A stretch of 64,000 bases of DNA, from the NCBI GenBank assembly GCA_963736255.1, contig CAVTOI010000003.1, positions 1,684,400 to 1,748,399 on the forward strand, written 5' to 3'. Source of the DNA: Candidatus Aminicenantes bacterium. GTDB taxonomy: Bacteria > Acidobacteriota > Aminicenantia > Aminicenantales > Saccharicenantaceae. This document shows positions 5,982 to 58,738 of the stretch, in pieces (within the stretch, counting starts at the first letter, position 1; every line of letters begins with the position of its first letter). A model generated the notes under the pieces. It had not been told where the DNA came from, searched no databases, and saw nothing but the letters and a program-made list of their open reading frames with translations. The translations under genes and the position numbers were made by a program.

Positions 5982-7013
5982 CTACAGGATCGGCCAGGCC
6001 TTCGGCAGGAAGATCTGCTCGTAGAGGGCCATGGCGTAGCGGTCGGTCATGCCGGCGATGAAGTCCCCGGCGCGGACGATGACCGGGTCGCCCGGGGGAT
6101 AGGGGCGGATGTAGTCCTCGGGACGCTCCATGATATAGCCAAAGAGGTCGGTGATGATCTTTTCGGTCTTGCGCAGCTCGTCGCGCGCCGCCGAGTTGAA
6201 ATAGACTTTCTGATAGAGATATTCCCGGAGCTCGACGACGGCCTTCATGATCCTCTCGCTCATGGCGATCCGCTCCAGGTCTGTCGCCAGGCTGGCCTCG
6301 ACGACGTCCATGACCATCCGGTCGATCCGCGTCGCGTGCCACTTGCCCAGGACCTTGACAAGGCCGGCCGGAATGTCCTCGTCCTTGATGATCCCGGCCC
6401 GGAGGGCGTCGTCAATGTCGTGGTTGACGTAGGCGATGACGTCGGAGACGCGGACGATCTGGCCTTCGAGCGTCAAGGGCATGTCCTCGACGTCCTCGTC
6501 GAAGATCTCGCCCCGGCCTTTGGAGTGTTTCTGGATGCCGTCGCGGACTTCGAAGGTCAGGTTGAGTCCCTTGCCGTCGTACTCGAGCTTCTCGACGACG
6601 CGCAGGCTCTGGTCGGCATGGTGGAAGCCGTGCGGCAGGAGCTTTCGCAGCGTCTGCTCGCCGGCGTGGCCGAACGGGGTATGGCCGAGATCGTGGCCCA
6701 GGGCTATGGCCTCGGTCAGGTCCTCGTTGAGGCGGAGGGCCTTGGCGATCGTCCGGGCGATCTGCGAGACCTCGAGGCAATGCGTCAGCCGCGTCCGGTA
6801 GTGGTCGCCGAACGGAGAGAGGAAGACCTGGGTTTTGTGCTTGAGGCGACGGAAGGATTTCGAGTGGATGATGCGGTCGCGGTCGCGCTGGAAGTCCGTC
6901 CGCAGGACGTGCTGAGCTTCGGGGCGGACGCGGCCCCTCGACTTGGCGCTGAGGCAGGCCTTGGGCGACAGGAACTGCTGCTCGGTATTCTCCAGCTCTT
7001 CGCGGATGGTCAT
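5982..7013 (-). CDS. dgt: dGTP triphosphohydrolase-like HD-domain phosphohydrolase
   Basis: 343 aa; HD motif ([10 protein letters not shown]...[11 protein letters not shown]) with the architecture of short Dgt-like dNTPases. Confidence 0.85.
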
Positions 7014-7065
7014 CGATTCTCTCCCCGGACGCGGCCGATTATAGCAGACGGGGGGCGTCGGGCGC

Positions 7066-7169
7066 CAGCCAAGACGGGGTCAAACCTTAATTCTTATAAT
7101 TTTATCCCCCGCCGATTGATAGCAATCCTAAGTTGCCAGGAAAAATTATAAGAATTAAGGTTTGACCCC
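7066..7169. repeat. AT-rich perfect hairpin: 28-bp stem, 48-nt loop, termini GGGGTCAAACCT / AGGTTTGACCCC
   Basis: Arm 7066-7093 is the exact reverse complement of arm 7142-7169. It lies between the divergent dgt and yggS starts and shares its termini with the hairpin at 50081-50172. Confidence 0.8.
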
Positions 7170-7189
7170 TTCTTTGATAAAATGAAGCG

Positions 7190-7852
7190 ATGAGCGGAAC
7201 GATCGCCTCGAACGTCAAGGCCATCCTGGCGGAGCTGCCGCCGGGGGTCGAGCTCGTCGCCGCGGCCAAGACCCGCTCCGCCGCCGAGATCCTCGAAGCC
7301 GTCGACGCGGGCGTCAAGACGATCGGCGAGAACTACGTCCAGGAGGCGGACGTCGTCTTCTCTGCCGTCGGCCATCGGGCCCGCTGGCATTTCATCGGCC
7401 ATCTCCAGACGAACAAAGCCAAGAAGGCCGTTGAGATCTTCGACCTCGTCGAGACCGTGGACTCGATCGCGCTCGGACGCGAGCTCGACAAGCGCGCAGC
7501 GGCGGCCGGAAAGACGATGGAGGTCCTGGTCGAGGTCAACAGCGGCCGCGAGCCCCAGAAAGCCGGCGTGATGCCCGACGAAGCGGAAGCCGTGGTCCGA
7601 TCCCTCGCAGCCCTGCCCCACCTTCGCGTCCTTGGCCTCATGACCATGGGCCCGTTCGAAGGCGATCCCGAGGATTCGCGGCCTTATTTCAAGGAGACGA
7701 AGCGCGTCTGGGACACGGTCAAGGCCCTGGCCATCCCCGGCGTCGAGATACGGCATTTATCCATGGGCATGTCCCATTCTTGGAAGATCGCCATCGAAGA
7801 GGGGGCCACCATGGTCCGCATCGGAACGGCCATCTTCGGACCGCGTCCCTAG
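7190..7852 (+). CDS. yggS: YggS-family pyridoxal-phosphate homeostasis protein
   Basis: 220 aa; alanine-racemase N-terminal-like PLP barrel (AAKTRS...IGHLQTNK...). Confidence 0.9.
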   Translation: MSGTIASNVKAILAELPPGVELVAAAKTRSAAEILEAVDAGVKTIGENYVQEADVVFSAVGHRARWHFIGHLQTNKAKKAVEIFDLVETVDSIALGRELDKRAAAAGKTMEVLVEVNSGREPQKAGVMPDEAEAVVRSLAALPHLRVLGLMTMGPFEGDPEDSRPYFKETKRVWDTVKALAIPGVEIRHLSMGMSHSWKIAIEEGATMVRIGTAIFGPRP

Positions 7853-49494: not shown

Positions 49495-50073
49495 ATGGAC
49501 GCAAAACCGCGGCTGTTCAAGACCAAGCAGGCCTGGCGGGCGTGGCTCGCTGCCAACCACGATAGATCCAACGGGATCTGGCTCGCCTATTACAAAAAGG
49601 GGAGCGGAAAGACTTCCGTTACGTACGAGGAGGCCCTGCAGGAGGCGCTCTGCTTCGGCTGGATCGACTCGTTGGTCCGGAGTCTCGACGAGGAGCGCTA
49701 CGCCCAGAAGTACACGCCCCGGAACTTGAAGTCCATTTGGTCGGCGGCCAACAAGGCCCGCGTCAGCAAGCTCATCGCCGAGGGCCGTATGTCCCCTCCC
49801 GGCCTGGCCAAGATCGAAGCCGCCAAGCGCAATGGTTCCTGGGACCGCCTCAACGACATCGACAGGATCGGCCGGGGCGCGGCCGTTCCCCCGGACCTTC
49901 TCGAGGCCCTGGGCAAGGTGCCCCGGGCCCGAGCCCTCTTCGAGGGACGGCCCCCGTCGGAAAAGAAGCTCTGGACTTTCTGGATCCTCACCGCGAAAAG
50001 GCCGGAGACACGGGCCCGCCGGATCGCGGAAACGGTCCAGCGCGTCCTGGCCGGCCGCCGGCCGGGGATATAA
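49495..50073 (+). CDS. YdeI/OmpD-associated family protein
   Basis: 192 aa; conserved ...ALCFGWIDS... core of the YdeI-like family. Confidence 0.7.
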   Translation: MDAKPRLFKTKQAWRAWLAANHDRSNGIWLAYYKKGSGKTSVTYEEALQEALCFGWIDSLVRSLDEERYAQKYTPRNLKSIWSAANKARVSKLIAEGRMSPPGLAKIEAAKRNGSWDRLNDIDRIGRGAAVPPDLLEALGKVPRARALFEGRPPSEKKLWTFWILTAKRPETRARRIAETVQRVLAGRRPGI

Positions 50074-50080
50074 AACGAGA

Positions 50081-50172
50081 GGGTCAAACCTACACCTTTT
50101 TAGTTTTTAGTTTTTTCCGGCCGGAATTCATCCAGTTGCCCGGCAAAAACTAAAAAGGTGTAGGTTTGACCC
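50081..50172. repeat. AT-rich perfect hairpin: 28-bp stem, 36-nt loop, termini GGGTCAAACCT / AGGTTTGACCC
   Basis: Arm 50081-50108 is the exact reverse complement of arm 50145-50172. It lies between the convergent ydeI-like and GH109-like genes, and its termini and CCCTTCTT flank match the hairpin at 7066-7169. Confidence 0.8.
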
Positions 50173-50180
50173 CTTCTTCC

Positions 50181-51539
50181 CTAGGCCTCGATGATCCCCA
50201 GGGGCGGGTTCGTCTTCCACTTGCCCCTTGTGAAATCGGGGATCTCGATCGGCCGGCCCTTGCCCGCGACGCTTTTCACACTGGCGCCGACGATGGCGCT
50301 CCAGGCGGCGGCGTCGTAGACGTCCTGATCGAGCGGCTCGCCCTTGCGGAGAGACTGGATGAGCCGATAGTCCTCGATGTAGTCCATGCCGCCGTGGCCT
50401 CTCCCCTCGCCCTTCGAAGCGATGGCCTTCCAGAGCGGGTGCTCGAACTCGGCGGCGAACTTCTCGAAATCGTCCCATTGATGGGGTTTCTCCGCCTTGC
50501 CCTCGATGTAGATCCGGTCGGGCCACTTGTGGGCCAGGCCCTTGGTGCCCTGGACGAGGTTGATCCGCGTGTAGGGCCGCGGCAGGTTGGTGTCGTGGAT
50601 GAGGATGATCGTCTTGCCGAGCTTGGTCTTGATGAGGCTGGTGTTGACGTCGCCGAGGACGTAGCGTTCTTTCGCCTGCGGCGAGTCCGCCCCGAACGTC
50701 GCCACCGCGTACTCATGGAGGCCGCGCGTCGGGGAGCTCAGCGAGACGAGATAATCGAAGGCGTCGCCGCGGTTGACGTTCATGCACTGGGCCACGGGCC
50801 CGAGACCGTGCGTCGGATAGAGGTTGCCGTTGAGCTTCTCGGACCAGGCCCGCCGCCACAGCCCCTCGCCGTCGCTCGAGAACTTGACGCCGCGGAGGTC
50901 ATGGAGGTAGCCGGCCTCGCCGTGGAGGACCTCGCCGAGGACGCCTTTGCGGACGAGATTGAGCGTCATGAGCTCGATCCGGTCGTAGCAGCAGTTCTCC
51001 ATCATCTGGCAGTGCTTCTTGTATTTTTCGGCCGCTTCGACGAGGGCCCAACAGTCCTCGATCGACATGGCCGCCGGCACCTCGGTCGCGGCGTGCTTGC
51101 CGTTGCGCATCGCGGCCAGACACACCGGCACGTGCCACTCCCACGGCGTCGCCGTCATGACCAGATCGAGGTCCTCGGTCGCGCACATGCGCTCGAAATC
51201 GCGTTCCCCGTTCGAATAACCGGCAGGCTTCGGCTGCCCGGCCTCGACGATCCATTTCTGGGCCCTTTCCACGTGGGCCGGGCGGATGTCACAGATGGCC
51301 TTGATCTCGACGCCCTCGATATTGAGGTAGTTCTGGACATGGGCCGAACCCATGCCGCCGACGCCGACAAAGCCGACCTTGACGGTGGGGATGGCCGGGG
51401 CCGTGAACTGCGATCGGGCTTCGCCCGGAATGGACGGCTTGGCCTCGAGGCCGAGACCGGCCACCGCGGCGCCCAATCCGGCGGCCGCCCCGATCTTGAG
51501 GAAATCCCTCCGGCTCTGGTTCTTGGTCGATTCGCTCAT
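50181..51539 (-). CDS. Tat-secreted Gfo/Idh/MocA-family oxidoreductase (GH109 alpha-N-acetylgalactosaminidase-like)
   Basis: RRDFLKIGAAAGLGAAVA Tat signal; Rossmann motif GFVGVGGMG. Confidence 0.8.
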   Translation of the reverse strand: MSESTKNQSRRDFLKIGAAAGLGAAVAGLGLEAKPSIPGEARSQFTAPAIPTVKVGFVGVGGMGSAHVQNYLNIEGVEIKAICDIRPAHVERAQKWIVEAGQPKPAGYSNGERDFERMCATEDLDLVMTATPWEWHVPVCLAAMRNGKHAATEVPAAMSIEDCWALVEAAEKYKKHCQMMENCCYDRIELMTLNLVRKGVLGEVLHGEAGYLHDLRGVKFSSDGEGLWRRAWSEKLNGNLYPTHGLGPVAQCMNVNRGDAFDYLVSLSSPTRGLHEYAVATFGADSPQAKERYVLGDVNTSLIKTKLGKTIILIHDTNLPRPYTRINLVQGTKGLAHKWPDRIYIEGKAEKPHQWDDFEKFAAEFEHPLWKAIASKGEGRGHGGMDYIEDYRLIQSLRKGEPLDQDVYDAAAWSAIVGASVKSVAGKGRPIEIPDFTRGKWKTNPPLGIIEA

Positions 51540-57924: not shown

Positions 57925-58665
57925 ATGTCATTGATTCGCATGAAGGTCGGTATCGCCATCCTTTGCCTGGTCGGTTTCCTCGCCGCCTGCGACGACTTCC
58001 GGGATGACCGGAACAGGATGACGGAAACTCACACGGTCGCCCTCGAGGGAGCGGCCCGGGCCGAGGTGGGCGTGCATATGGGGACCGGCGAGATGAAGCT
58101 CCGGGGCGCCGTCCAAGAGGCGCTGCTCGAGGCCTCGTTCTCTTTCAACCGGGAGCGCAATCGCCCTGAAGTCGACTACCGCATGTTCGGCGACAAGGGC
58201 ATTCTGGAGGTCCGGCACGCCCGGCGGCGCGGCATCAACTTCGGCGGCAGCCGGAACAACTGGGACCTCGTCCTGGGCAACTCCGTGCCGATCGACCTCA
58301 AGGTCGATCTCGGCGCCGGCCGGAGCGAGATCGACCTGCGGGGCCTCACGCTCGAACGGGTCGAGATCGACATGGGCGTCGGTGAGACTGAGCTCGATCT
58401 GCGCGGCCCGCACAAGACGGGATTCCTGGTCAAGATCGACGGCGGCGTCGGCAGCGGCAAGATCGTCCTGCCCGCCGAGGTCGGCGTCCGGGTCAAGGTC
58501 GACGGCGGCCTCGGCTCGGTCGACGCCCACGGCCTGACCAAGCAATCCGGCGCCTGGGTCAACGACCTTTACGGGAAAAGCCCCATCACGATCGAGGTCG
58601 ACATCGACGCCGGCATCGGCAGCCTCGACCTCCGGGTCGAGCCCTCCTCGCAAATCCGGACATGA
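57925..58665 (+). CDS. lipoprotein of the DUF4097/toast-rack beta-helix family
   Basis: Lipobox LAAC; repeated (I/V)DLxxGxGxxELDLRG units. Confidence 0.6.
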   Translation: MSLIRMKVGIAILCLVGFLAACDDFRDDRNRMTETHTVALEGAARAEVGVHMGTGEMKLRGAVQEALLEASFSFNRERNRPEVDYRMFGDKGILEVRHARRRGINFGGSRNNWDLVLGNSVPIDLKVDLGAGRSEIDLRGLTLERVEIDMGVGETELDLRGPHKTGFLVKIDGGVGSGKIVLPAEVGVRVKVDGGLGSVDAHGLTKQSGAWVNDLYGKSPITIEVDIDAGIGSLDLRVEPSSQIRT

Positions 58666-58671
58666 CCAGTA

Positions 58672-58738
58672 AATGGGGACGCTTCTATTCTTTAAATTAA
58701 TGCAATTTTTTTAAAAATAGAAGCGTCCCCATTTTTTC
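58672..58738. terminator. bidirectional rho-independent terminator: 18-bp stem AATGGGGACGCTTCTATT, AT-rich loop, T-run
   Basis: Arms 58672-58689 and 58716-58733 are perfect complements, flanked by A/T runs, between the convergent toast-rack and tnaA genes. Confidence 0.7.

Follow-up and report, generated by a model that had tools for sequence, protein, structure and literature searches.

The window (the whole 64,000-nt stretch of Candidatus Aminicenantes DNA that we analysed) carries a long hairpin, copy 2, at 50081-50172, between a YdeI/OmdA-like gene and a GFO_IDH_MocA/Glyco_hydro_109 gene (Table 1). Its left arm, GGGTCAAACCTACACCTTTTTAGTTTTT, is followed by a 36-nt loop and by a right arm that is the exact reverse complement of the left, and an inverted-repeat search returned the same pair of 28-nt arms, 100% complementary and with 36 nt between them. 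The initial annotation had described a 28-bp perfect stem, a 36-nt loop containing CCGGCCGG and a position between convergent genes, and all three descriptions agree with what we read there; the element and its flanks occupy nearly all of the 107-nt intergenic gap. The loop can form an extra small stem of 5 bp (CCGGC/GCCGG). Folded as DNA, copy 2 reaches -34.3 kcal/mol, compared with -11.4 +/- 2.6 for shuffled sequences (z = -8.9), and folded as RNA it reaches -53.4, compared with -23.1 +/- 3.2 (z = -9.4); in each case 0/200 shuffles were as good, and the fold is far beyond chance. Two independent assemblies (L117 and L118) contain copy 2 with at most one base change, and it is therefore not an assembly artefact; near-identical independent assemblies contain both copy 1 (described below) and copy 2. 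In one of the two (assembly ERZ25039513; L117 3634-4691) the GFO_IDH_MocA gene beside copy 2 was called as two shorter genes, which likely reflects long-read frameshift errors or a pseudogene.

Table 1. Positions of the hairpins, their parts and their neighbouring genes in the window
Feature	Position	Strand	Description
HD-domain gene	5982-7013	-	divergent neighbour of copy 1
Copy 1	7071-7174	.	AAGACG and GGGTCAAACCTTAATTCTTATAATTTT, 38-nt loop, reverse-complement arm, then CTTCTT; arms 7071-7103 and 7142-7174
yggS	7190-7852	+	divergent neighbour of copy 1
YdeI/OmdA-like gene	49495-50073	+	left neighbour of copy 2
Copy 2, left outer flank	50075-50080	.	ACGAGA; degenerate compared with AAGAnG, 3/5 specified positions
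Copy 2, left arm	50081-50108	.	foot GGGTCAAACCT (50081-50091) and variable AT-rich inner arm ACACCTTTTTAGTTTTT (50092-50108)
Copy 2, loop	50109-50144	.	36 nt, GC-rich, sequence unique to copy 2
Copy 2, right arm	50145-50172	.	reverse complement of left arm; terminal foot AGGTTTGACCC
Copy 2, right outer flank	50173-50178	.	CTTCTT; 5/5 specified positions of CnTCTT (AAGAnG inverted)
GFO_IDH_MocA/Glyco_hydro_109 gene	50181-51539	-	right neighbour of copy 2
Gene before third hairpin	57925-58665	+	
Third hairpin	58671-58734	.	different family, GGGG-type foot; AAATGGGGACGCTTCTATTCTTTAAA, 12-nt loop, complement

A related hairpin, copy 1, separates an HD-domain gene from yggS; the two genes diverge, and copy 1 is located between their extended -10 boxes. 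It had been placed at 7066-7169, about 5 nt away from where we find its arms, which are 33 nt long, 97% complementary and separated by a 38-nt loop. The termini and flank that had been reported as common to the two hairpins are indeed shared: both begin with GGGTCAAACCT, end with AGGTTTGACCC and have CCTTCTT on the right, and their orientation is identical. All four exact occurrences of GGTCAAACC in the window are the arms of copies 1 and 2. A third hairpin, with 26-nt arms that are 92% complementary, directly follows the stop of its upstream gene and is itself followed by a T-run; it has a more terminator-like look. It probably represents a sister family of end-dimers, its GGGGAC foot being the one feature that suggests kinship with the GGGGWSAS-type ends discussed below.

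Copy 2 had also been proposed to serve as a bidirectional terminator. A terminator consensus scan of 49800-50450 gave 0 terminator-like sites, there is no T-run, the stem is AT-rich and copy 1 occupies the promoter region of two divergent genes rather than a place behind a gene. Termination is thus unsupported as the reason for the element or as a general function of it; a side effect of copy 2 on transcription at the convergent site may exist. A promoter scan at copy 2 found one weak promoter-like match, TTGACC-N18-GATGAT, reading out of the right arm. At gathering thresholds Rfam gave 0 hits in the whole window, and at permissive E-values 50030-50230 gave sub-threshold miRNA-precursor matches only (best 37 bits, compared with a threshold of 83). 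A tRNA/tmRNA scan found none, and a literature search with the foot sequences returned unrelated primer matches only.

The layout of the hairpins bears on whether they could be integron attC sites, CRISPR-like repeat-spacer units or retron msd hairpins. They do have a superficial likeness to attC in their conserved ends, variable paired middle and length of 60-140 nt, and to CRISPR in the repeat-36 nt-repeat spacing. However, copies 1 and 2 stand 43 kb apart amid housekeeping genes rather than in an array, their repeats are inverted and not direct, and neither copy has an integrase, cas or reverse-transcriptase gene next to it. The stems are also perfect, whereas attC has extrahelical bases, and GTCAAAC/GTTTGAC at the ends departs from RYYYAAC/GTTRRRY. 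The layout rules these readings out, and we regard their probability as negligible.

A hairpin family with a fixed foot

Scanning one genome per species for GGTCAAACC-N60-85-GGTTTGACC yielded at least 116 loci. Among the matches listed, about two thirds were true relatives with extended pairing, while the rest shared the 9-mers only. The matches listed, the orthologous yggS loci and the window together gave a set of 106 unique elements whose stems measure 18 bp or more. The family with conserved termini that the initial annotation had seen in two copies is much larger than the window shows: at least about 100 further hairpins with the foot of copies 1 and 2 occur in public genomes, mostly Candidatus Aminicenantes/Acidobacteriota MAGs, with other carriers among Desulfobacterota, Actinomycetota, Verrucomicrobiota, Syntrophorhabdus, Auribacterota and MAGs labelled 'Eubacteriales'. 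The foot, GGGGTCAAACC(T), is 97-100% conserved across 98 elements, and conservation in the family is limited to this foot and to the flank AAGAnG/CnTCTT. On the left, directly before GGGTCAAACC, the position weight table of the 106 elements reads A66 A69 G72 A72 n G91; the outer module is symmetric, with AAGAnG to the left and CnTCTT to the right, and its 'n' is not reliably paired. On two occasions this 'n' is the sole difference between otherwise identical 200-nt stretches (window 7075 and L119; L143 and L144; C/A, A/G), and this base may mark a hot spot where cleavage or joining is presumed to occur.

Inside the foot, the arms vary. The inner arms are 15-18 nt long and AT-rich (27% GC), often with two tandem TnnAC-like boxes 7-8 nt apart, and 83 distinct inner arms were found among 98 elements; the loops, across 106 elements, range from 1 to 121 nt (median 32, mean GC 55%). 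The initial annotation had raised both compensatory stem changes and a conserved loop signature as features of such a family, and the first of these is evident in the alignment: variable arm positions match their own partner at 14.1/16, as opposed to 7.0/16 when paired with the arms of a different element, each of the four Watson-Crick pair types is used at stem positions 12-23, and a single compensatory pair separates the orthologues L141 and L143. The second did not hold up, as a k-mer and common-substring analysis of 106 loops found no conserved loop motif and similarity only in orthologues and nested copies; ATCC.AGTTGCC, common to both window loops, is not general in the family. With arms and loops nearly all individually unique, the copies therefore did not arise by recent duplication of one another, and in this they differ from a family that is actively spreading.

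Empty, filled and re-used sites

Comparison of 80 loci orthologous to yggS (61-89% amino acid identity) showed that its upstream site differs between lineages. The site is empty in L121 (86%), L124 (84%), L134, L139, L148, L153, L155 and more distant loci, and in L120 and L122 it holds a hairpin with the same stem and loop as in the window. Hairpins whose arms differ occupy it in L123, L125, L128, L129, L137, L138, L140-145, L147, L162 and L180, a chimeric-arm hairpin in L132, and hairpins with other feet, flanked by AAGAAGG/CCTTCTT as in the family, in L126, L131 and L146. At the site of copy 2, two syntenic orthologues (77-79% amino acid identity) have a short GGGGACACGTAC...GTACATGTCCCC hairpin instead of the window's element. 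The family often shows insertions nested in one another, solo ends in tandem and solo arms, and it behaves as mobile DNA, with hairpins gained and lost at orthologous sites.

Hairpins of other families, of the form GGGACCTGGTCTTCGCA...TGCGAAGACCTGGTCCC and GGGGACACGTAC...GTACRTGTCCCC, were seen at orthologous intergenic sites (L126, L131 and L146 upstream of yggS; L227 1867-1913; L228 2580-2613), several of them with AAGAAGG/CCTTCTT and some nested in one another. Upstream of yggS itself, two extended -10 boxes that point away from each other are conserved: GATTATAGCA (TGCTATAATC when read on the other strand) and TGATAAAATG. In the window (7013-7190) and in L120-L199 these stand back to back as TGCTATAAT and TGATAAAAT, about 12 nt apart in empty sites, and the hairpins insert exactly between them, at the would-be -35 regions, apparently harmlessly.

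Pairs of empty and filled sites allow the insertion boundaries (slashes) to be compared. The empty site of L148 reads CAGCTAAGA/CTTGCAA and the filled site of L147 reads ...CAAGA/GGGGGTCAAACC...GACCCCCTCTGAG/CTTGCAA; likewise, empty L134 has ...GAAGAAGG/TGCTAGAATG and the filled window has ...AAGACGG/GGTCAAACC...GACCCCTTCTT/TGATAAAATG. Diverged as these sequences are, they suggest that AAGA(n)GG is present before insertion and that the element brings the inverted CnTCTT. We found no target-site duplication at offsets of 0-8 nt in 103-106 elements, where direct repeats were no commoner than in shuffled controls, as is expected for Y1 transposition.

Copy 1 is also unexpectedly well kept. Compared with its orthologue in L120 it has 0/56 arm changes and 3/38 loop changes, and compared with L122 again 0/56 arm differences, with more loop differences than to L120. 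Four-fold sites of the adjacent yggS differ by 24% and 29%, respectively, and the flanking intergenic DNA is scrambled. Copy 1 has been kept in place far above neutral expectation, which hints at host-level constraint, something from which a purely selfish element would not benefit.

Such conservation could mean that the hairpins are primarily host-functional and selected at each site, with the likeness to transposon ends reflecting distant origin only; as host roles, RNA 3'-end or stabiliser hairpins, transcription roadblocks between convergent genes and nucleoid-protein binding sites can be proposed. The conservation island at copy 1 fits this proposal, as do the single compensatory pair between L141 and L143, the way in which one intergenic site can hold different hairpin families from lineage to lineage, as though the site called for a hairpin, and the known secondary host roles of REPs (PMC3733652). 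At the same time, the surroundings of copies 1 and 2 are opposite (a divergent promoter for the former, a convergent gene pair for the latter), there is neither a T-run nor a terminator-like call, and the close orthologues L121 and L124 do without any hairpin at the yggS site. Nor does any Rfam family apply, the only matches being sub-threshold and to generic miRNA hairpins, and conservation is confined to a foot that elsewhere brackets transposase genes. We therefore consider a primarily host-functional origin improbable, while noting that a host function and a mobile origin are compatible and not exclusive.

Transposase genes between the same ends

In a Syntrophaceae MAG (L053), a full hairpin on one side and a solo arm on the other enclose a 337-aa gene. 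Its product matches Pfam Y1_Tnp (6e-15) and, below Pfam's own cut-off, Bac_DnaA_C (7.5e-6). When reverse complemented, the solo arm equals the left arm and loop start of two neighbouring hairpins, and these hairpins are therefore internal-deletion derivatives of the gene-bearing element. Homologues of the L053 protein number more than 6,400, many of them named 'REP element-mobilizing transposase RayT' by JGI, and H72, H74 and Y114 are invariant in the 26 that we aligned. A profile of these 26 homologues matched DnaA domain IV structures in the PDB over residues 237-336 (E = 1.2e-6); a PDB sequence search with the Y1 domain, including the profile, gave no match other than that of the C-terminal DnaA-like domain.

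Four homologues in other genomes (P0054, P0010, P0120 and P0081; L200-L215, L216, L223) are bracketed by the ends in the arrangement GGGGTCAAACCT..[gene]..AGGTTTGACCCC. The ends read GGGGTCAAACCTTAACTGTTGAC..ATG...TAG TAAATAGTTAAGGTTTGACCCC for P0054, GGGGTCAAACCTAAACTATTGAC...TAGTAAAGGTTTGACCCC for P0010, GGGGTCAAACCTCCACTATTGAC...GAAGTGGAGGTTTGACCCC for P0120 and GGGGTCAAACCTTGAGTATTGAC...AAGGTTTGACCCC for P0081, the last of which has its stop codon supplied by the end. P0099 and its neighbour have the variant feet GGGTCAGCCG and GGGGTCAGGTC. The P0054 gene was found with four different neighbour combinations and is therefore multicopy.

Two further observations concern the layout of the full-length elements. 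In P0081 (L223 9045-9057) the right end overlaps the gene, so that the TGA within GGTTTGACCCC is the transposase stop. Across L200-L223, T(A/G)TTGAC is conserved in the left ends, some 17-23 nt in from the tip, with -10-like hexamers about 17 nt beyond it and before the transposase start; the inverted repeat of the full-length elements probably holds the -35 box of the transposase promoter.

RAYT-like genes with long terminal inverted repeats have been termed TIRYTs, and the units that they form TIRtrons (Di Nocera et al. 2013, PMC3733652). In a later classification TIRYTs make up TnpA-Y1 subclass 2.1, the second largest subclass, with Bac_DnaA_C/HTH tails (Quentin et al. 2018, PMC6006769); a full-text literature search for TIRYT found it mentioned only in these two papers. 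The enzyme encoded between our ends, a Y1_Tnp HUH protein of about 340 aa with a DnaA-domain-IV-like HTH, is of this TIRYT, or subclass 2.1, type. The inverted repeats of TIRYTs share the motif GGGGWSAS (PMC3733652), and the family foot GGGGTCAA agrees with it at 7/8 positions, the last being A and not C/G; in the foot of copy 2 the first G is also replaced by A (AGGGTCAA). Two sister feet fit the motif fully, GGGGTCAG (L125, L218) and GGGGACAC (L131, L227, L228).

Searches with tblastn and the family HMM found no Y1/TIRYT gene in the 64-kb window, so that for this genome the link to a transposase is one that we infer. The same searches found no Y1/TIRYT gene with the ends of copies 1 and 2 in about 1.3 Mb of mostly Aminicenantes DNA; on the window and all fetched loci they returned only the gene in L053 and an unrelated Y1 gene in L107.

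The L107-type Y1 family (about 250 aa, common in Aminicenantes and the sole Y1 family seen among the Aminicenantes loci) was considered as a partner and rejected, as its ends differ in three further contexts (L224-L226). Its Y1_Tnp genes lie at L107 7467-8000, L224 10001-10708, L225 10001-10783 and L226 7249-8001, and its inverted ends (CAGCYTGGCTG...TATTGATA upstream and CAGCCAAGS downstream, ..CCTTGGCTG..) are unrelated to the GGGGTCAAACC foot.

The gene within the ends also bears on whether the hairpins are classical MITEs, that is, internally deleted DDE transposons moved by cut-and-paste via their terminal inverted repeats. Long terminal inverted repeats, absence of coding capacity and presence/absence polymorphism would all suit a MITE, as would the loops in the Syntrophaceae MAG, which keep the start of the parent element's interior. 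However, the enzyme between these ends is a Y1 HUH protein and not a DDE transposase, no target-site duplication was seen at boundary offsets of 0-8 nt, and the inner repeats and loops vary from copy to copy, unlike those of MITE families. We give this explanation very little credence.

Proposed mechanism and relation to known systems

We consider it probable that the copy 2 hairpin is a gene-less miniature mobile element, consisting of two inverted TIRtron-type IS ends joined head to head, whose full-length relatives encode a TIRYT. Since such ends bracket Y1 genes elsewhere, the most likely reading of the hairpin in this genome is a dimer of TIRYT ends that resembles a REPIN and is mobilised as single-stranded DNA. 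The window hairpins are best read as bacterial repeats of a kind that is known but has received little study, and not as purpose-built terminators.

Y1 HUH enzymes of the IS200/IS605 and RAYT type act on folded single-stranded DNA substrates and leave no duplication behind. By analogy with IS200/IS605 and REP/REPIN-RAYT, our element would be handled as single-stranded DNA, with the single strand folding into the long hairpin. The transposase would then recognise the conserved foot (the GGGGTCAAACC/GGTTTGACCCC duplex together with the AAGAnG/CnTCTT flanks) and is predicted to cut and rejoin at the hairpin base, with insertion occurring beside a pre-existing AAGA(n)G(G) and the inverted copy, CnTCTT, presumably supplied by the element. 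For the inner stem pairing alone would matter, and the loop could vary freely; a foot that is read, a stem that is merely paired and a loop that is free would explain the fixed foot, the co-varying arms and the unrelated loops. For the stem or foot, the DnaA-IV-like domain is a putative reader of double-stranded DNA. The enzyme in this genome could act in trans from elsewhere, or the copies could now be immobile relics, and we leave room for such relics as well as for host-level retention of the kind argued for REPINs.

More tentatively, the hairpins may be single-hairpin Y1 substrates in which only the 11-17 nt foot of the paired ends is read; in miniatures these paired ends would amount to a hairpin, and in full-length elements to a panhandle. 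Selection would maintain pairing along the long stem, the copies would be individually unique, and those in Aminicenantes would be retained by host-level selection and not by continued copying. We regard this combination as rather unlikely. To our knowledge, single-hairpin substrates of a Y1 transposase have not been described. The basis for host retention is the 0/56 arm changes, as opposed to 24-29% at neutral sites, and the re-use of intergenic sites by different families; if true, the host-retained Aminicenantes hairpins would be domesticated structural elements.

We know of nothing reported on the DNA acted on by subclass 2.1 Y1 enzymes (TIRYTs). About 100 hairpins from several phyla now form a large natural data set that separates fixed bases (foot, outer flank) from merely paired ones, and this pattern is a direct, testable prediction of the TIRYT substrate. 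It also extends the REPIN-type picture, in which long-lived hairpin repeats go with tyrosine transposases, to an uncultured phylum. For annotators the hairpins are a warning, because they can pass for terminators or small RNAs and they disrupt assemblies.

TIRtrons are one of three known systems that come close to the family. The family's ends begin with GGGG(W)(S)A but depart from the consensus at its last position, and inverted ends flank a Y1 (HUH plus Tyr) gene in other genomes, though none was found in the window or in the searched Aminicenantes DNA. The transposase is long, with a C-terminal DnaA_C/HTH tail (Bac_DnaA_C, HTH_23 or HTH_28 in subclass 2.1). Repeats of TIRYTs form moderately abundant families and occur as singles, dimers or clusters (PMC3733652), and here they occur as dimers (the hairpins), solo ends and nested or tandem clusters; the sharpest TIRYT group is in Acidobacteria (PMC3733652), the lineage within which Aminicenantes fall. 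On the other hand, the window arms are 28-33 nt long, compared with 17-22 nt for the repeats on full-length elements, the inner arms and loops of the window family are nearly unique to each copy, and the outer AAGAnG/CnTCTT module is a feature of this family. A further difference is that Quentin et al. found no REP-like repeats near subclass 2.1 genes (PMC6006769).

With REPIN-RAYT systems (Bertels and Rainey 2011, PMC3116915) the family shares short gene-less hairpin doublets dispersed in intergenic DNA, a tie to a Y1 transposase of far lower copy number, a loop or spacer less conserved than the arms, and long persistence at orthologous sites. The arm of a REPIN is, however, a REP palindrome with a GTAG (or CGTC) tag, while the window arms are non-palindromic and lack GTAG/CGTC: the palindrome in the window is formed only by the two arms jointly, a single arm not being self-complementary. 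Because they have no GTAG tag and their arms are not palindromic, the window hairpins fail the definition of a REP. RAYTs are also short and single-copy, whereas the TIRYT homologues are about 340 aa long, carry an HTH tail and are multicopy in some genomes at least. By this comparison the window hairpins would be functionally analogous to REPINs. Finally, IS200/IS605 elements and the miniatures derived from them (PATEs) have in common with the family Y1 HUH chemistry, the absence of target-site duplication, insertion beside a short specific sequence (as the empty and filled sites suggest here) and the use of DNA hairpins as recognition structures. At the same time, the ends of IS200/IS605 are two separate small subterminal hairpins without terminal inverted repeats, whereas the two ends of the window element pair with each other into one long stem.
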